This document shows positions 949 to 63,006 of a DNA stretch of 64,000 nucleotides, in pieces (position 1 is the first letter of the stretch; every line of letters begins with the position of its first letter). The DNA comes from Malacoraja senta. Its lineage: Eukaryota. The DNA lies in assembly GCA_038087875.1 (NCBI GenBank), contig CM075991.1:8620001-8684000 (forward strand). Direction: 5' to 3'. The notes beneath the pieces are model-generated. The model saw only the letters and a program-made list of their open reading frames with translations. It did no database searches and had not been told where the DNA came from. Both the position numbers and the translations under genes were made by a program.

Positions 949-1326
949 CAAAGATAGACCACTCCTTCTAAATGCAATGGGCTGACATGTATTAAGCAAC
1001 GGAGCGGAACGTGGGCCTTTTTTTCATCCATTTCCGTAACCCGAACCGACCCGACCCGCAGTGTGATCAACGTTGCGTGGGGAACAGTTTGTGTTAATAA
1101 ATTAAAATTCTGAAAATGAGGAGAAGATTTTTACAAATAACTTTTATTTTTACGAGGATGTTTCAGTAACCGGCTTCCATCTCCGCACTAGTATTCTATG
1201 GGGATCTTTGGTGCGGAGACGGAAGCCGGTTACGGAAATGGGGCCGAAAATGACCCATGAATCTGCCCATGACCGTACTACGTCTTTTTCGTCGAGTGGT
1301 CTATCTTGCTCGCTATCGGATCTTTG
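949..1326. mobile_element. Non-autonomous DNA transposon (P-like MITE), copy 1
   Basis: Ends CAAAGAT.../...GGATCTTTG; 8-bp TSD GGTAACAT (941-948) / GTTAACAT (1327-1334); left TIR internally deleted; near-identical to 6528-6935 and 36394-36788. Confidence 0.85.
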
Positions 1327-5418: not shown

Positions 5419-6197
5419 TGTATTGTATTGTATTGTATTGTATATCTTTATTGTCATTTCCTGAGTATTCGCATACCCAGAGGAAACAAAAAAACGTTCC
5501 TCAACCAGTGTCCATTTCAATGTGCAGTAAAAAATAAATAGAAGTAAAATTACATATATCATGAACAAATGAACACTCTACTCTCTACTAAACATCAACA
5601 GGCGTTCCGATCGGCAGCGGCACGACAGTGGCTCTGCTGCAGTGTGTCCAGGTTGGTGGTTGGTGCACGATACTTTGGCAGGGGGCAAAGTCCGTTTATC
5701 AGTCTTATAACCTGCGGGAAGAAGCTGAGGAGCATCCTGCTGGTTTTGCACCTAATGCTCCGGTACCTCTTCCCAGATGGCAGGATGGAGAATATGTGGT
5801 GCCATGGGTGGTAGGGGTCTTTGATGATGGAGATGGCTCTGCTGATACATCTCTTCCTGTATATGTCCAGCAGGAAAGGGAGTGGAGCACCAATAATCCT
5901 GCTGGCAGTCTTCACAATCCTGTCTAGTTGGTGCCGTTCGTACGCCTTGCAGCTCCCGAACCAGGAAGTGATGCCGTAGGTTAATGTGCTCTCGATTGTC
6001 CCCCTATAAAAAGTTCGTAGGTGTGTAGTGGGGAGACCTGCTTTACATAGTCTTCGGAGAGGGTGTAGTCGCTGCTGGGCTCTCTTGACCAGTGCTGTGG
6101 TGTTGGTCGTGGACGTCAGGTCATCTGACGGGTGGAGTCCTAGGAACTTCACGCTGTTGACCCTTTCCACATCAGCTCCATCGATGTGCAGAGGTGT
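5419..6197 (-). mobile_element. Rex1/Babar LINE 3' fragment
   Basis: ORF 5595-6170 KFLGL..AQQRL..FYRGTIES..DPYHP..LPSGKRYRS; (CAATA)n tail. Confidence 0.88.
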
Positions 6198-6504
6198 ATT
6201 GGTGTATCTAGGTGGTATTGAGGAAAGGTTAGTATTGAGGAGTGGATTTTATGGTGAATGTGATAACTCTCTCAAGGTCAATGTTGGTAAAATGCTATAA
6301 TGTGGATAAGTGTAGAGAGTTTTTTTTCTTTCAATCCCTTACTGAGGTACAGTGTAATTTGCTTTAGTTTACTCAGGCAAAGGAGAAACTGTCTCAGGGA
6401 TATAAATACCCTCTAGTTGGTGTTGAGCTGCCTTCTTGAAACACTGCAGTGTCTGACATGAAAGAGCTCCCATGGTGTTGCTGTGGGAGGTGTTTGGGGG
6501 AGGC

Positions 6505-7265
6505 CTGGATAGAGTGGATGTGGAGAGCAAAGGTCCTATAGCAAGCAAGATAGACCACTCCTTCTAAATGCAATGGGCTGACGTGTAGTACGCAACGGAG
6601 CGGAACGTGGGCCTTTTTTTCATCCATTTCAGCAACCCGACCCGACCCGACCCGACTCGCAGTGTAATCAACGTTGCGGGGGAACAGTTTGTGTTAATAA
6701 ATTGTAATTCTGAAAATGAGGAGAAGATTTTTCCCAAATAACTTTTATTTTTACAAGGATGTTTCCGTAACCAGCTTCCGTCTCCGCACTAGTATCTTTG
6801 CTCCGCTATGGGATCTTTGGTGCGGAGACGGAAGCCAGTTACGGAAATGGGGCCTTAAATTCCCCATGAATCTGCCCATGACCGTACTACGTCTTTTTCG
6901 TCGAGTGGTCTATCTTGCTCGCTATAGGATCTTCGGTGGAGAGGATGTTTCCACTAGTGGGAGAATCTAGGGCCAGAGGTCATAGTCTCAGAATTAAAGG
7001 ACGTTCCTTTAGGAAGGAGAAGAGGAGGAATTTCTTTAGTCAGTGGGTGGTGAATCTGTGGAATTCATTACCACAGATGGCTGTGGAAGCCAAGTCAATG
7101 GATATTTTTATGGCAGGGATAGATAGATTCTTGCTTAGTACGGGTGTCAGGTGTTATGGGGAGAGGGCAGGAGAATGGGGTTAGGGGAGAGAGATAGATC
7201 AGCCATGACTTTATGGCGGAGGAGACCTGATGGGCCAAATGACATAATTCTGCTCTTATTACGTG
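6505..7265 (+). mobile_element. CR1 LINE 3' fragment split by a MITE
   Basis: GGATAGAGTGGATGTGGAGAG|MITE|GATGTTTCCACTAGTGGG; RGHSLRIKG and FFSQWVVNLWNSLP motifs. Confidence 0.85.
6528..6935. mobile_element. Non-autonomous DNA transposon (P-like MITE), copy 2
   Basis: Perfect 8-bp TSD GTGGAGAG (6520-6527 / 6936-6943); ~33-bp TIRs. Confidence 0.9.
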
Positions 7266-23382: not shown

Positions 23383-23603
23383 ATTGACCGAGTCTTGATT
23401 AGTACGGGTGTCAGGGGTTATGGGGAGAAGGCAGGAAATGGGGTTGAGAGGGAGAGATAGCCTTCTTCCCATAACCGTTGACACCCTTACTCATCAATCT
23501 CCGCCTTAAAAACATCCCTTTAACCTGTTAATCTCTGCTTGGAAAATAATGAATTCCACAGATTCACCACCCTCTGGTGATATACCTCACGCTGCCATCA
23601 CCA

Positions 23604-24249
23604 TAGATACATAGATACATAGAAAATAGGTGCAGGAGTAGGCCATTCGGCCCTTCGAGCCTGCACCGCCATTCAATATGATCATGGTTGATCATCCAAC
23701 TCAGTATCCCGTACCTGCCTTCTCTCCATACACCCTGATCCCTTTAGCCATAAGGGCCACATCTAACTCCCTCTTAAATATAGCCAATGAACTGGCCTCA
23801 ACTACCCTCTGTGGCAGAGAGTTCCAGAGATTCACCACTCTCTGTGTGAAAAAGTTTTTCCTCATCTCGGTCTTAAAGGATTTCCCCCTTATCCTTAAGC
23901 TGTGACCCCTTGTCCTGGACTTCCCCAACATCGGGAACAATCTTCCTGCATCTAGCCTGTCCAACCCCATAAGAATTTTGTACGTTTCTATAAAATCCCC
24001 TCTCAATCTTCTATATTCTAGCGAGTATAAGCCAAGTCTATCCAGTCTTTCTTCATATGAAAGTCCTGACATCCCAGGAATCAGTCTGGTGAACCTTCTC
24101 TGCACTCCCTCTATGGTAATAATGTCCTTCCTCAGATTAGGAGACCAAAACTGTACGCAATACTCCAGGTGTGGTCTCACCAAGACCCTGTACAACTGCA
24201 GTAGAACCTCCCTGCTCCTATACTCAAATCCTTTTGCTATGAAAGCTAT
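23604..24249 (-). mobile_element. CR1 LINE, 5'-truncated
   Basis: AFIAKGFEYRSREVLLQLYRVLVRPHLEYCVQFWSP..; tail. Confidence 0.92.
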
Positions 24250-32283: not shown

Positions 32284-32917
32284 CAAGTCAAGTCAAGTCA
32301 AGTGAGTTTATTGTCATGTGTCCCTGGTAGGACAATGAAATTCTTGCTTTGCTTGAGCACAACAGAACATAGTAGGCATTTACTACAAGGCATTCTATAA
32401 ATATATACACAATGGTCAATATACTGATAAAGTGCAAATAACAGTATTGGCTAGTAAAGTTCAGTGTTATGTCCGAGCCAGGTTTAATAGCCTGATGGCT
32501 GTGGGGAAGTAGCTGTTCCTGAACCTGGTCGTTGCAGTCTTCAGGCTCCTGTACCTTCTACCTGAAGGTAGTAGGGAGATGAGTGTGTGGCCAGGATGGT
32601 GTGGGTCCTTGATGATGCTGCCAGCCTTTTTGAGGCAGCGACTGTGGTAGATCCCCTCGATGGAAGGGAGGTCAGAGCCGATGATGGACTGGGCAGTGTT
32701 TACTACTTTTTGTAGTCTTTTCCTCTCCAGGGCACTCAAGTTGCCGAACCAAGCCACGATGCAACCGGTCAGCATGCTCTCTACTGTGCACCTGTAGAAG
32801 TTAGAGAGAGTCCTCCTTGACAAACCGACTCTCCGTAATCTTCTCAGGAAGTAGAGGCGCTGATGTGCTTTCTTAATAATGGCATCATTGTTCTCGGACC
32901 AGGAAAGATCTTCAGAG
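32284..32917 (-). mobile_element. Rex1/Babar LINE 3' fragment inserted in a pLTR
   Basis: ORF 32467-32823 FYRCTVES..DPHHPGH..LPSGRRYRS; (CTTGA)n tail; pLTR TTTCGGGTC|GAGGCCCTTCTTCAG resumes. Related tails at 38655-38951, 42215-42570, 44580-44893, 45407-46070 and 51030-51345. Confidence 0.87.
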
Positions 32918-33308
32918 GTCGAGGCCCTTCTTCAGTTCTGTAGTTCTGGTGTGAATTTACCATGTCCAGAGGAGCCCAACCGAGAGAAGAGGAGATATTT
33001 TCAACAGAAGCAAATGTGTTGCAGGTGCATTTTCAGATGCACACTGGCACTGGTGCTAAACAGTGATAGTTGAACTTTTCATTGCATCTTTACGAAGGAT
33101 TTGACCGCACACATCCGATAAATCCACCAGGATTTACACTTCTTTATCTCCTCGTAAGTGTCAGGAACAACACCACTGGGTGAGTGATTATTTTTCGGAT
33201 AGGTATTAAAGGTATACACACACCCACATACACCCACACATGTACACACACATACATACATACATACGTACACACACACACACACACACATATGTATACA
33301 CACACACA

Positions 33309-35002: not shown

Positions 35003-35471
35003 AGGACCTGTCCCACGTTCACCACCTAATTCACGACCTCTGCTGAGTTTGCCCTTGACTCATACTCGCAGCATGGTCGTCACGAGGTCGTAGGAGGACG
35101 TGACGACACAGAGAGTGGTGAATCTGTGGAATTCTCTGCCACAGAAGGTAGTTGAGGCCAGTTTATTGGCTATATTTAAGAGGGAGTTAGATGTGGCCCT
35201 TGTGGCTAAAGGGATCAGGGGGTATGGAGAGAAGGCAGGTACAGGATTCTGAGTCGGATGATCAGCCATGATCATATTGAATGGCGGTGCAGGCTCGAAG
35301 GGCCGAATGGCCTACTCCTGCACCTATTTTAGATGTTTCTATGTAGGTAGGTCGTAGCATAGTCGTAGGTACTCGTGGCATCAAGTAGGTCGGGGCGTTT
35401 TTCTAGCATGATGAAAAATGTCCATGAGTAAAAAAGGTCGTGAATTAGGTGATGAAAGTGGGACAGGCCCT
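35003..35471. mobile_element. PIF/Harbinger-type MITE with a nested CR1 tail (about 35107-35343)
   Basis: TTA TSD (35000-35002 / 35472-35474) within the pLTR sequence GCTGAGTTACTC. Confidence 0.85.
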
Positions 35472-36393
35472 TTACTCAGCTTTATGTGTCCACCCTGAGG
35501 AGGAGATGGATCAAACATATCGGCAATCTATATATGGAAATAAATGGTTAGTTTAGAGTTACCGCGTGCACACGTTCCCTTTGGTCCCCCGAGTCCGCGC
35601 CGACCTGTGATCCCTGTACACTGTCACTACCCTACTAGCTAGGGATAATTTCCAATTTTACCAAGGCCAAATAACCCACAAATCTGTATGTCTTTGGAGT
35701 GTGGGAGGAAACCTGGTGCACCCGGAGAAAACCCACTGGGTCCGGGGAGAACATACAAACTCCGTACAGGATTGAACCCGGGTCTCTGGCGCTGTCTGGC
35801 AGCAACTCTACTGCTGTTCCATCGTGCCATCGCCCAATGATAGATTTTGACAATCTTGATCATCTCAACATCTGCAATCCGTCAACACTGTCAAACAAGA
35901 CCACCAAAAAGATAGCTTCACAAAACAAGGAGGCGGCTGATCTGATCAGAGAGTTTGTGCTGATCTTCGTCAAAGGGTCAATGACCTTCTTCTGGTCCTT
36001 ATTGATACACATTGTAAATGGATTGAAGTTCGACAGGAAGGATCATGCAATTCAACTGAATGCACAATTGAGGGGCCACAAACAATCTTCCCATCTCTTG
36101 TTCTACCTTAACAATTGACGTCAGATAATGAACCACAATTGAATCCATTCATTTAAATGCTTGATCAGAAGGAATGTAATTAAACATACATAAACTCCCC
36201 AACATTATTTACTTCTAACGATGTAGCAGAAAGGTCTTAGGTATACAAAAATGCTGGAGAAACTCAGCGGGTGCAGCAGCATCTATGGAGCGAAGGAAAT
36301 AGGCAACGTTTCGGGCCAAAACCCTTCTTCAGACCTATTTCCTTCGCTCCATAGATGCTGCCACACCCGCTGAGTTTCTCCAGCACTTTTGTC

Positions 36394-36788
36394 CAAAGAT
36401 CCTATAGCGGAGCAAGATAGACCACTCCTGCTAAATGCAATGGGCTGACGTGTAGTACGCAACGGAGCGGAACATGGGCCTTTTTTTCATCCATTTCCGT
36501 AACCCGAACCGACCCGACTCACAGTGTAATCAACGTTGCGGGGGAACAGTTTGTGTTAATAAATTTAGATTCTGAAAATGAGGAGAAGATTTTGACCAAA
36601 TAACTTTTATTTTTACGAGGATGTTTCCGTAACCGGCTTCCGTCTCCGCACTAGTATCCTATGGGATCTTTGGTGCGGAGACGGAAGCCGGTTACGGAAA
36701 TGGGGCCTTAAATTACCCGTGAATCTGCCCATGACCGTACTACGTCTTTTTCGTCGAGTGGACTATCTTGCTCGCTATAGGATCTTTG
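36394..36788. mobile_element. Non-autonomous DNA transposon (P-like MITE), copy 3
   Basis: TIR CAAAGATCCTATAGCGGAGCAAGATAGACCACTC / GAGTGGACTATCTTGCTCGCTATAGGATCTTTG; TSD CTTTTGTC / CTTTTGTT. Confidence 0.9.
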
Positions 36789-37350
36789 CTTTTGTTGACC
36801 TTCGATTTTCCAGCATCTGCAGTTCCTTCTTAAACTCTTTAGCAGAAAGGTCTTTATGAATTCTCAAGAAAGCTTTGAAAAGGCAGTTCCAAGGTTGTTT
36901 GAATCTAAACTATGAATCATTTCAGATAACTTTCCAATCAATACCACGTCCCATCATAGTATTCACTCCAGAGGAACTATTGACCCATCACAGTGTGACT
37001 GTGCTTGAGTTTATTAAAGGCCAACTTGGTAAAGGAAATGGAGAGAAAGCAGCCGCAGAAATAATGATCACGATTCATACGTTAAGGAGAAGCAAAGGGA
37101 AGCAGATTAAGCAAGATGAGAAAGTGAGAATATGAGGGCAGCCCTAGAAACAGACACTTTGGACCATTTCATCCATGCTAAGTAACTAAGATATCTATCT
37201 GAGCTAGTCCCATCTGCCTGCATTTTGCCTGTATCCCTATGAAACTTTGCATGTACAGGTATCTGTTTAATGTCTTTAAACATTGTAATTGTACCCATCT
37301 CCACTGCTTCCTCTGCAGCGTGTTCCATGTATGCACCACCCGCTGTGTAA

Positions 37351-39849: not shown

Positions 39850-40660
39850 TCGGAGCTCAAAATTAACGAACAAATTTACCACTTGCAACATTGGCATGCG
39901 TGGAATCACGCGGCTCTCCGCACTGTTCTCACTCCCTGTCTTCCAGCGAGCAGCCGTAGTCAGCATCGAAGCCGCGTCTCTGGCGCTATAAGCAAGAGCG
40001 GAACTCGCTATCGAAAGATGGAGGGGATGGGGGACACAAATTTTTGGTGTCCGCGCGCGCACGCGCACACTCACACACACGCACGAGGCTTCAGAGGCTC
40101 AATCCAGCGCTAAATGCAGCTCAACTCTGCCTGTATCACCGGGTTAACTACAGCCCTGGCTGGACTGACGGGATACCAGCGCTGCTTCTCCGCGCTGGCC
40201 ATATTTCCCGCAAGTCCAGCAAGGGCTGTAGGCTCACCTGGCGGGACAGGCAGAGTTGACCTGGTTTAGCGCTGCTTCTCTGCGCTGGCTGTGGGCCTGG
40301 GGGGCACCTCGCCGGTCTGATTCCCCACCAAAGATCCTATAGCGGAGGATCTTTGCTGCCGACCTCTCTGGCCACCCGTGGGGGGGGGGCCACTCAGGTG
40401 GGGACGGGACAGCTCCGGAGACCCGGCCGGGATCGATCCTGCCTGCGGATGAGGCGCAGGTCTGTGCCACGTCTCCCTCCTCCAATCGCCGCGCTCTATC
40501 CTCAGGCCCACCCCCCCACTCCTCCCTCCTCCAATCATCGCGTTGAATTATCATGTCCCGCCCCCATTGCCTGCTGACCGACGTCTCTCTCGTCCAATCG
40601 GCGCCCTCGATCTTCAGTCCCACCTCCACTGTCTCGCGGAAAGCGGAGATTTCATCGGGT
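39850..40660 (-). promoter_or_regulatory. CpG-island promoter with putative non-coding first exon
   Basis: Non-repeat CpG-dense block; CCAATC at 40482, 40531 and 40594; GC box CCCGCCCC at 40557; E2F site TTTCCCGC at 40204-40211; minus-strand donor CAG|GTGAGC at 40238/40237. Confidence 0.6.
40329..40355. mobile_element. 27-bp remnant (fused ends) of the P-like MITE
   Basis: CAAAGATCCTATAGCGG + AGGATCTTTG are the exact left and right termini of 36394-36788. Confidence 0.8.
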
Positions 40661-40824
40661 TTTAAAATCCGGATCACAAAAACTTGGGGGGGATGTCCCC
40701 CACCTCTCAAAACATGGGGGGGGGGACTTGTCCACTCTGGCCCCCCCGGGTTTTCCGCTCCTGGCTAAGACAGCAACTCTACCACTGCGCCACCCGAAAC
40801 TGAGCTTACTTCGAATCAGTAGTA

Positions 40825-54176: not shown

Positions 54177-54702
54177 CACATAGAAACATAGAAACATAGA
54201 AATTAGGTGCAGGAGTAGGCCATTCGGCCCTTCGAGCCTGCACCGCCATTCAATATGATCATGGCTGATCATCCAACTCAGTATCCTGTACCTGCCTTCT
54301 CTCCATACCCCCTGATCCCTTTAGCCACAAGGGCCACATCTAGCTCCCTCTTAAATATAGCCAATGAACTGGCCTCGACTACCCTCTGTGGCAGAGAGTT
54401 CCAGAGATTCACCACTCTCTGTGTGAAAAAAGTTCTTCTCATCTCGGTTTTAAAGGATTTCCCCTTATCCTTAAGCTGTGACCCCTTGTCCTGGACTTCC
54501 CCAACATCGGGAGCAATCTTCCTGCATCTAGCCTGTCCAACCCCTTAAGAATTTTGTAAGTTTCTATAAGATCCCCTCTCAATCTCCTAAATTCTAGAGA
54601 GTATAAACCAAGTCTATCCAGTCTTTCTTCATAAGACAGTCCTGACATCCCAGGAATCAGTCTGGTGAACCTTCTCTGCACTCCCTCTATGGCTATAATG
54701 TC
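54177..54702 (-). mobile_element. CR1 LINE, 5'-truncated
   Basis: IEGVQRRFTRLIPGM..; (CTATGTTT)n tail. Confidence 0.9.
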
Positions 54703-55652: not shown

Positions 55653-56415
55653 TATTATCTAAATGGTGGCCGATTAGGAAAAGGGGAGATGCAGCGAGAC
55701 CTGGGTGTCATGGTACACCAGTCATTGAAAGTAGGCATGCAGGTGCAGCAGGCAGTGAAGAAAAGCGAATGGTATGTTAGCTTTCATAGCAAAAGGATTT
55801 GAGTATAGGAGCAGGGAGGTTCTACTGCAGTTGTACAGGGTCTTGGTGAGTCCACACCTGGAGTATTGCGTACAGTTTTGGTCTCCAAATCTGAGGAAGG
55901 ACATTATAGCCATAGAGGGAGTGCAGAGAAGGTTCACCAGACTGATTCCTGGGATGTCAGGTCTTTCATATGAAGAAAGACTGGATAGACTTGGCTTATA
56001 CTCGCTAGAATTTAGGAGATTGAGAGGGGATCTTATAGAAACGTACAAAATTCTTATGGGGTTGGACAGGCTAGATGCAGGAAGATTATTCCCGATGTTG
56101 GGGACGTCCAGGACAAGGGGTCACAGCTTAAGGATATGGGGGAAATCCTTTAAGACCGAGATGAGAAAAAACTTTTTCACACAGAGAGTGGTGAATCTCT
56201 GGAACTCTCTGCCACAGAAGGTAGTTGAGGCCAGTTCATTGGCTATATTTAAGGAGGGAGTTAGATGTGGCCCTTGTGGCTAAAGGGATCAGGGGGTATG
56301 GAGAGAAGGCAGGTACGGGATACTGAGTTGGATGATCAGCCATGATCATATTGAATGGCGGTGCAGGCTCGAAGGGCCGAATGGCCTACTCCCTGCACCT
56401 ATTTTCTATGTATCT
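55653..56415 (+). mobile_element. CR1 LINE, 5'-truncated
   Basis: RDLGV motif and ORF 55774-56283; near-identical to 23604-24249. Confidence 0.92.
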
Positions 56416-56461
56416 AACACGGTCTCGTTGACTGTAGGGCTCCCTGGGTTACAAAGACGTC

Positions 56462-58285: not shown

Positions 58286-58485
58286 NNNNNNNNNNNNNNN
58301 NNNNNNNNNNNNNNNNNNNNNNNNNNNNNNNNNNNNNNNNNNNNNNNNNNNNNNNNNNNNNNNNNNNNNNNNNNNNNNNNNNNNNNNNNNNNNNNNNNNN
58401 NNNNNNNNNNNNNNNNNNNNNNNNNNNNNNNNNNNNNNNNNNNNNNNNNNNNNNNNNNNNNNNNNNNNNNNNNNNNNNNNNNNNN
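58286..58485. other. Assembly gap (200 N)
   Basis: Run of exactly 200 N, probably a placeholder for a gap of unknown size. Confidence 0.99.
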
Positions 58486-59947: not shown

Positions 59948-61420
59948 AAGATTCTACATACCAAGATTCTACATACCAAGATTCTACATACCAAGATTCT
60001 ACATACCAAGATTCTACATACCAAGATTCTACATACCAAGATTCTACATACCAAGATTCTACATACCATCTACATACCAAGATTCTACATACCAAGATTC
60101 TACATACCAAGATTTTACATACCAAGATTCTACATACCAAGATTCTACATACCATCTACATACCAAGATTCTACATACCAAGATTCTACATACCAAGATT
60201 CTACATACCAAGATTTTACATACCATCTACATACCAAGATTCTACATACCATCTACATACCAAGATTCTACATACCAAGATTCTACATACCAAATTTTAC
60301 ATACCATCTACATACCAAGATTCTACATACCATCTACATACCAAGATTCTACATACCAAGATTCTACATACCAAGATTCTACATACCAAGATTTTACATA
60401 CCATCTACATACCAAGATTCTACATACCATCTACATACCAAGATTCTACATACCAAGATTCTACATACCAAGATTCTACATACCAAGATTTTACATACCA
60501 AGATTCTACATACCAAGATTCTACATACCATCTACATACCAAGATTCTACATACCAAGATTCTACATACCAAGATTCTACATACCAAGATTTTACATACC
60601 AAGATTCTACATACCAAGATTCTACATACCATCTACATACCAAGATTCTACATACCAAGATTCTACATACCAAGATTCTACATACCAAGATTCTACATAC
60701 CAAGAATTCTACATACCAAGATTTTACATACCAAGATTCTACATACCAAGATTCTACATACCAGATTCTACATACCATCTACATACCAAGATTCTACATA
60801 CCAAGATTCTACATACCAAGATTCTACATACCAAGATTCTACATACCAAGATTCTACATACCATCTACATACCAAGATTCTACATACCAAGATTCTACAT
60901 ACCAAGATTCTACATACCAAGATTCTACATACCAAGATTCTACATACCAAGATTCTACATACCAAGATTTTACATACCAAGATTCTACATACCAAGATTC
61001 TACATACCAAGATTCTACATACCATCTACATACCAAGATTCTACATACCAAGATTCTACATACCAAGATTCTACATACCAAGATTCTACATACAAAGATT
61101 CTACATACCAAGATTTTACAATACCAAGATTCTACATACCAAGATTCTACATACCAAGATTCTACATACCATCTACATACCAAGATTCTACATACCAAGA
61201 TTCTACATACCAAGATTCCACATACCAAGATTCTACATACCAAGATTCTACATACCATCTACATACCAAGATTCTACATACCAAGATTCTACATACCATC
61301 TACATACCAAGATTCTACATACCAAGATTCTACATACCAAGATTCTACATACCAAGATTCTACATACCAAGATTCTACATACCAAGATTCTACATACCAA
61401 GATTCTACATACCAAGATTC
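59948..61420 (+). repeat. 15-bp tandem repeat (AAGATTCTACATACC)n with 11-bp variants
   Basis: About 100 near-perfect units; explains the 534-aa ORF. Confidence 0.97.
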
Positions 61421-61614
61421 GGAGATCATAGTTGCTCCACAGTGGACAATATTCCAAGCTCATTGGCTTTACAAGAAGGTCAGAATCAAGATGGTCTGGC
61501 CACCAGTGTTTGCTCAAATATCACAGGAGCTTGCTGGCTGAAAAGGAAAAGGGAGAAATTTCATGAGGTCATAAGTGATGAGTAGAATTAGGCCATTCGG
61601 CCATCGCCCACTTG

Positions 61615-62656
<1,042 letters not shown>

Positions 62657-63006
62657 GAAATGGAGGTGGTGAGAGATAGTGAGGATGAAGGAATGCAGAG
62701 TGGTGGATGAGGGGGCGAGGAGTGGGGAGGGAAAGTGGGGAGAGGAAGGGAAGGAGTGGAGAGAGGAGGGAGGGAGGGAGTGGGAGAGAGTGGATGGAGA
62801 GAATGGGTAGGGAGGGTGTGAAAGGGAGTGCCGATGAGTGACCAAATTCAGGCAGATGCACATACACATGAAGGGGAAGGAGAGGCAGAGGCAGGTTGGT
62901 AGTGATGGAGAATATATAGTTCAGTCTTTTGGTCGAAAGGAGGTTTCAGGGCAATAACCATTAAATGAGCAGAAGCAACAATAGGGGGAAGACAAATCCC
63001 CTGGCT

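Follow-up and report, generated by a model that had tools for sequence, protein, structure and literature searches.

The window, by which we mean the whole 64,000-nucleotide stretch of Malacoraja senta DNA analysed here, contains three copies of a short repeat with inverted ends and, in an unrelated element, a 27-bp piece composed of both ends of the repeat (Table 1). BLAST searches with copy 3 as the query recover copies 1 and 2 with E-values of about 1e-163 and 1e-168, and the copies differ pairwise by 5.1–6.1%, gaps excluded, in agreement with the first-pass annotation, in which the three segments were described as very similar. The repeats of 378–408 bp are short, bounded by terminal inverted repeats (TIRs), flanked by target site duplications (TSDs), present in several copies and non-coding, and they are non-autonomous MITEs. 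No Pfam match was obtained for reading frames that overlap the copies. Three copies in 64 kb correspond to a density of 10–137 per Mb (95% interval). The possibility that the MITE is a known RNA family was dismissed, since the window is without an Rfam match.

Table 1. Positions of the MITE copies, their parts, and the 27-bp remnant with its host element
Feature	Position	Strand	Description
MITE copy 1	949-1326	+	378 bp; 8-bp TSD 941-948 / 1327-1334, 7/8; left TIR with 17-bp deletion
MITE copy 2	6528-6935	+	408 bp; inside dispersed repeat; perfect 8-bp TSD 6520-6527 / 6936-6943; TIR 30/33
Two tandem 19-nt TIR-start copies in copy 2	6782-6819	-	18/19 and 16/19 to TIR start
MITE copy 3	36394-36788	+	395 bp; inside short interspersed repeat; 8-bp TSD 36386-36393 / 36789-36796, 7/8
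Left TIR of copy 3	36394-36427	+	34 bp, one base longer than right TIR
Right TIR of copy 3	36756-36788	-	33 bp
Perfect 28-bp inverted repeat in copy 3	36624-36651 / 36673-36700	.	Encloses minus-strand TIR-end piece
Unrelated element hosting 27-bp remnant	39993-40763	.	About 770 bp; 11-bp terminal inverted repeats; inserted in SINE
27-bp remnant, candidate excision footprint	40329-40355	+	First 19 nt of left TIR and last 10 nt of right TIR

A scan of TSD lengths from 4 to 11 bp identifies 8 bp as the best length for all three copies, with the other lengths far behind, and the earlier description of one perfect duplication and two with a single mismatch is reproduced. The same scan, with its peak at 8, ruled out a duplication of 7 bp for the window copies. 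For an empty-site comparison, each element was removed together with one copy of its 8-bp TSD, and paralogues spanning the emptied junction were sought within the window. Three such paralogues were found for copy 2, fourteen for copy 3, and none for copy 1. The best empty-site matches are free of gaps, as judged by coordinates, over 103 nt at 88% and 97 nt at 96%. Because paralogues span their emptied junctions, copies 2 and 3 are located inside other repeats, as had been proposed, and their 8-bp TSDs are confirmed. The dispersed repeat that hosts copy 2 is presumably LINE-like.

The length of about 33 bp given previously for the TIRs applies to copy 2, in which 30 of 33 positions match, and to copy 3, in which the two TIRs differ by one indel and one substitution. 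It does not apply to copy 1, in which the deletion, located between two AAGAT words, has reduced the left TIR to 16 nt. Similarly, the CAAAG terminus attributed to the family is present at five of the six ends, the exception being the right end of copy 2, with CGAAG. Matches to the 18-nt end motif with at most three mismatches occur seven times in the window, compared to 0.06 expected. The CpG richness noted in the first-pass annotation is evident from observed/expected ratios of 1.12–1.24 in the copies versus 0.53 in the window, of which only 3 of 155 bins of 400 bp reach at least 1.1. The MITE copies rank within the top 10 of 143 window repeat pairs (at least 200 nt long, median similarity 76%), which is consistent with the "relatively recent" origin claimed for them; however, each copy has private changes (12, 10 and 7 over 376 columns) and the TIRs are damaged, so present activity of the family is unsupported.

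The surrounding SINE and LINE repeats appear similar to those of skates and rays. The youngest repeat family of the window, with 95–97% identity, is present at 23602-24248, 35106-35345, 54179-54702 and 55778-56416, and we take it to be LINE 3'-end-like. The ALKBH8_N domain (PF09004) scores above the cut-off at 5595-6248 and 32467-32931 on the minus strand; in fish genomes, this domain is often a sign of 3' fragments of LINEs. Long tandem arrays at 59948-61420 and about 61500-62950 are open in several frames; the Pfam matches LD_SV2 and DUF7510 over the first of these arrays are probably compositional. There is an assembly gap of 200 N at 58286-58485.

Internal structure of the MITE and the 27-bp remnant

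Each MITE copy contains a 28-bp inverted repeat around TIR-start units (1161-1238, 6762-6847 and 36624-36700 in copies 1, 2 and 3), and the tandem TIR-start segment of copy 2 exceeds that of copies 1 and 3 by 9 bp. The internal inverted repeat could perhaps be an old break-and-repair scar that was fixed in the founder. Subterminal words, for example CCATTTCC..., are common to both ends of the MITE in inverted orientation and would fit putative transposase-binding sites. The MITE strand folds strongly (z -11.7). The inverted copy within the internal hairpin starts exactly at the boundary between TIR and flank, as it would after fold-back repair in the founder.

The 27-bp remnant is the only one in the window. 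Its two arms overlap by 2 nt of microhomology and match the corresponding ends of copy 3 at every position, and its junction lies well within the 33-bp TIR. The 8-mers that flank the remnant agree at only five of eight positions, although the arms are unmutated. On its left side, the remnant is bordered by sequence that resembles the sequence next to the inner TIR piece of the MITE copies. The element that hosts the remnant is GC-rich, non-coding and present in a single copy in the window, with an imperfect TSD, an internal hairpin of about 170 bp (40105-40274) and three direct repeats of about 54 bp. Based on its end motif, we take the host element to be hAT-like.

The same end sequence in metagenome contigs

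Strict patterns of 22–25 letters derived from the MITE ends have no match in viral, metagenome and genome contigs. A 17-letter pattern taken from the start of the TIR matches at least 118 metagenome loci, of which 80 were taken with their flanks. Among the matches listed, 33 loci from four assemblies, as distinguished by contig prefix (25, 6, 1 and 1 loci), constitute a sister set; they were chosen after the sequences were seen, one of them (L086) is doubtful, and one arm of each was selected as exact. A second inverted end is located within 100 nt at 22 of the 33 sister loci versus 6 of 158 other loci among the matches listed. None of the 12 viral and 73 prokaryote-genome loci identified with a relaxed pattern contains a convincing element in which two ends and a TSD are present, and these loci were attributed to chance.

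The sister loci are rich in repeats and poor in coding sequence; their one clear Pfam match is to DUF4517 (E 6.5e-17), presumably a eukaryotic family. A comparison of the window with 73 kb of sister loci resulted in neither blastn nor tblastx matches, despite the 43% share of the window that is self-repeated, indicating that the sister loci belong to another lineage. Their origin from the same organism as the window was rejected on the same grounds.

A 296-bp element at L033:1162-1457 has the same end and a TSD that agrees at 6/7, and L093:1-317 is related to it internally; together they represent, in an unrelated eukaryote, a MITE family of about 300 bp with the same 16–17-nt end and a 7-bp TSD. 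Beyond nucleotide 17, no significant similarity connects the window and sister families (best p = 0.017 of 18 tests), and common ancestry of their interiors was rejected.

Short remnants were reduced from 23 rows to 14 independent cases by removing two loci (L018 and L033) that a loose-pattern call had assigned as short remnants but that are long elements, and by collapsing eight one-site loci. These 14 remnants, among the matches listed, are 30–48 bp long and have 14 different junctions. Their arms reach about 21–24 nt with one mismatch allowed, and the junctions are either direct or contain filler of up to 14 nt, often copied from the TIR. The end that is shared within the sister family is itself only about 19–21 nt long, and therefore the limit of the arms may reflect the length of the TIR and not the position of a cut.

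Target sites in the sister family are duplicated over 7 bp, with agreement at 6/7 or better in 5 of 16 rows, compared to 0.4% of mismatched pairs; none of the 16 has an 8-bp duplication. The TSD of remnant L073 is clean (7/7). In 8 of the 14 independent remnants, the flanks agree at no more than 4/7, and such poor flanks exceed the expectation from 10–20% ageing (P from 5e-10 to 3e-4). Flank deletions account for some of the poor TSDs (L026, L100), and in remnants with unmatched flanks the ends of two different insertions might have been joined. Loci L017, L036, L047, L079, L099, L102, L107 and L111 have unmatched flanks, yet mostly keep the target-site pattern. A single remnant was amplified inside a host repeat (L019, L026, L032, L075, L076, L078, L100, L115 and L129) and eroded by successive deletions to forms of 51, 45 and 37 bp and a one-ended form, with the TSD sometimes lost.

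The 27–51-bp pieces keep both termini, their TSD is sometimes clean, and one 37-bp form is common to several loci. These properties could also belong to mobile micro-elements, in which case the pieces would be uninformative on cleavage and the superfamily would be open. However, the shared forms are positioned at one site in the host repeat and were copied along with it, and no two of the 14 independent sites have the same interior, so no remnant form has spread as a family. The micro-element explanation is therefore very improbable.

To check its proposal of a P-like family, the first-pass annotation had recommended a domain search for THAP and P-transposase, together with a search for long elements with the same ends. 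The Pfam scans of 393 window frames of at least 62 aa (other than short frames over the run of N) and of 75 sister-locus frames of at least 85 aa contain no transposase or THAP match. Neither is there a long element with both ends in any of 203 loci among the matches listed. A search for the P-transposase domain was negative in both of two large viral records but gave no signal in any control either, and is therefore uninformative.

Superfamily assignment and proposed mechanism

The window MITE probably owes its mobility to a P-superfamily (THAP9-like) transposase acting in trans, with a probability of roughly 0.75. The assignment is based on the anatomy of the putative excision scars, the TSD length of 7 bp in the sister family, and the length of the TIR; the P-like character proposed in the first-pass annotation is thus retained as probable, whereas the reason given for it, the CAAAG ends, is weak. 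The end motif of P elements is CANRG and that of hAT elements YARNG; CAAAG fits both and so cannot tell them apart. A full-text literature search for CANRG returned only unrelated papers among the matches listed, and neither motif is stated in the available portions of the P- and hAT-family literature. Merlin elements end in GG, and ends of this type are absent from the window MITE on sight.

A stagger of 17 nt distinguishes the cut made by the Drosophila P transposase from those of other characterised cut-and-paste enzymes (PMC7776569, excerpt). According to the accessible text of PMC2895639, the cut donor retains 17-nt TIR tails that are then processed by end joining, and each end contributes at most 17 nt to the excision junctions of P{wa}, which also show short microhomology or a templated insert (Tables 1–3 therein). 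The remnants described here, one from the window and 14 independent ones from the sister family, have the shape of the P{wa} junctions, but they bear only indirectly on a long staggered cut, their TSDs are often poor and their limit is 19–21 nt rather than 17.

In excerpts from the literature, TSDs of the P group are 8 bp (P) or 7 bp (1360, Galileo) (PMC3698922, PMC3276498), and P TIRs are 31 bp in Drosophila and 27–31 bp in Anopheles (PMC1562414). The duplications of 8 bp in the window and 7 bp in the sister family are both of P type, and the window MITE has CA...TG ends with a TIR (33 bp) of the expected length of about 27–33 bp. Two families with one end sequence and TSDs of 7 and 8 bp thus exhibit the same pairing as the P group.

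It is unlikely, though conceivable, that the MITE is instead of the hAT superfamily (Ac, Tip or Tag1 type) and that its remnants are ordinary internal deletions between the TIR arms. The passages available on hAT elements give a TSD of 8 bp and TIRs of 5–27 or 10–25 bp (PMC2874221, PMC3942097); the TSDs of the window copies agree with this, whereas the 7-bp TSDs of the family with the same end and the 33-bp TIR do not. The target pattern nT....An is common to P (GTCCGGAC) and hobo (GTNCGNAC) in the excerpted sources (PMC3698922, PMC3276498), so that the 8-bp duplications of the window also fit hobo, and hAT elements occur in all vertebrate lineages (PMC4350176, excerpt). The CAAAG ends fit the hAT motif as well. 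Deletion between short repeats is documented by the left TIR of copy 1 and by the one-site remnant shortened from 51 to 37 bp, and the strong folding of the MITE strand could favour loop deletion. In contrast, 14 different junctions, many with templated filler, suit end joining better than slippage. Furthermore, hAT, Transib and Mutator elements form a hairpin on the flank (PMC5499845, excerpt), and excision of this kind is expected to leave no TIR at the donor; provided that the TIR-retaining remnants are products of excision, they speak against hAT.

Only slightly less doubtful is the assignment to another superfamily with uncharacterised cleavage, such as Zisupton, Novosib or an unnamed group, whose transposase would likewise make a long staggered cut. 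Insertions of Zisupton and Novosib are flanked by 8-bp TSDs. The uniqueness of the long P stagger applies to characterised enzymes only (PMC7776569, excerpt), the apparent tail of 19–21 nt differs from 17 nt, and the MITE ends are unlike the 13-bp TIR of zebrafish Pdre2. However, no positive feature favours Zisupton or Novosib; among vertebrates, Zisupton is known from teleosts only, as far as the excerpt of PMC4350176 states, and it is for the P group that the pair of 7- and 8-bp TSDs is documented (PMC3698922, PMC3276498, excerpts).

Under the preferred P-superfamily assignment, a transposase encoded elsewhere in the genome would mobilise the MITE in trans. The enzyme may bind the subterminal motifs, cut one strand at the very end of the element and the other deep within the TIR, and insert the MITE with an 8-bp stagger. 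After excision, the donor chromosome would carry long single-stranded tails of TIR sequence, and end joining of the tails would generate short head-to-head TIR remnants, either through microhomology, as at 40329-40355, or with templated filler. The junction at nucleotide 19 in the window and the arms of about 20–21 nt in the sister family suggest that the tails might be longer than the 17 nt of Drosophila, with about 19 nt for the window family and about 20–21 nt for the sister family; the MITE family possibly has a longer stagger of 19–21 nt. Some of the remnants may have originated by deletion, because sequence between short repeats is clearly lost secondarily at times, as in the conversion of the 51-bp to the 37-bp form. 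Scars with unmatched flanks may be deletions that resulted from the pairing of ends of two different copies.

A broader reading can be put forward only tentatively. One P-superfamily lineage with a conserved 16–17-nt end might span a vertebrate and an unrelated animal, with abundant MITEs, a stagger of 19–21 nt, a TSD of 8 or 7 bp depending on the host, and numerous natural excision scars that would reveal the geometry of cleavage without biochemistry. The end shared across the two hosts would then reflect either horizontal transfer or deep conservation.

Comparison with known elements and significance

The comparisons below draw on partial texts of the cited sources. The window MITE resembles the P element of Drosophila melanogaster in the CA...TG ends, a TIR of about 31–33 bp, an 8-bp TSD and the nT....An target pattern (PMC7776569, PMC2895639), and in short TIR remnants joined head to head, through microhomology or with templated filler (PMC2895639). 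It differs in its end sequence, which is unlike that of P beyond CA, and in being non-coding; the remnants keep up to 19 nt in the window family and about 21 nt in the sister family, compared to 17 nt in Drosophila P. P-MITEs of Anopheles gambiae are likewise non-autonomous, a few hundred bp long, with TIRs of about 30 bp and 8-bp TSDs, and in need of P masters (PMC1562414). Such masters are known in Anopheles, whereas none was found here, and the window MITE has an internal hairpin with TIR-end pieces.

Among vertebrates, zebrafish has the P-like elements Pdre and Pdre2, which are flanked by 8-bp TSDs and also occur as internally deleted copies (bioRxiv 10.1101/2024.03.22.586318). The TIRs of Pdre2 measure 13 bp and differ in sequence from those described here, and there are about 50 homologous sequences in its genome (bioRxiv 10.1101/2024.03.22.586318), while the window family has 33-bp TIRs and is represented by three copies and one scar in 64 kb. 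The 1360/ProtoP and Galileo elements share a 7-bp TSD with a GT...AC-type pattern with the sister family (PMC3698922, PMC3276498); the window family differs from them in its 8-bp TSDs and in the absence of TIRs of Foldback length. MITEs of the hAT superfamily are similar in the 8-bp TSD, the CA start and short subterminal repeats (PMC2874221, PMC3942097, PMC5499845), but differ from the families described here in that the window TIR exceeds 27 bp, the sister TSD is 7 bp, and remnants that retain the TIR are unexpected from a flank hairpin.

Neither the MITE family nor natural P footprints in vertebrates are described in the literature searched, which does not include Repbase Reports, Dfam and most subscription papers. 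A 14-nt string from the MITE end occurs solely in a paper that is unrelated by its title. The available text of a skate and shark genome paper (PMC12361510) discusses TcMar but not P elements, and its supplements contain one unrelated THAP match; a survey of THAP9 (PMC10824691) does not mention cartilaginous fish. The window MITE is probably a new P-superfamily MITE family, for which an uncurated Dfam or Repbase entry may well exist.

P-type elements are seldom seen moving in vertebrates. Mobile ones have been described from zebrafish, with about 50 Pdre sequences (bioRxiv 10.1101/2024.03.22.586318, excerpt). A single MITE family without its transposase is of moderate interest. If the P-type origin of its scars is true, the MITE would identify a further vertebrate lineage in which P elements moved, and the family would point to a transposase with which it could be tested whether the length of the stagger is fixed. 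Scars that retain the TIR could provide a cheap means of sorting orphan MITEs with 7- or 8-bp TSDs as P rather than hAT.
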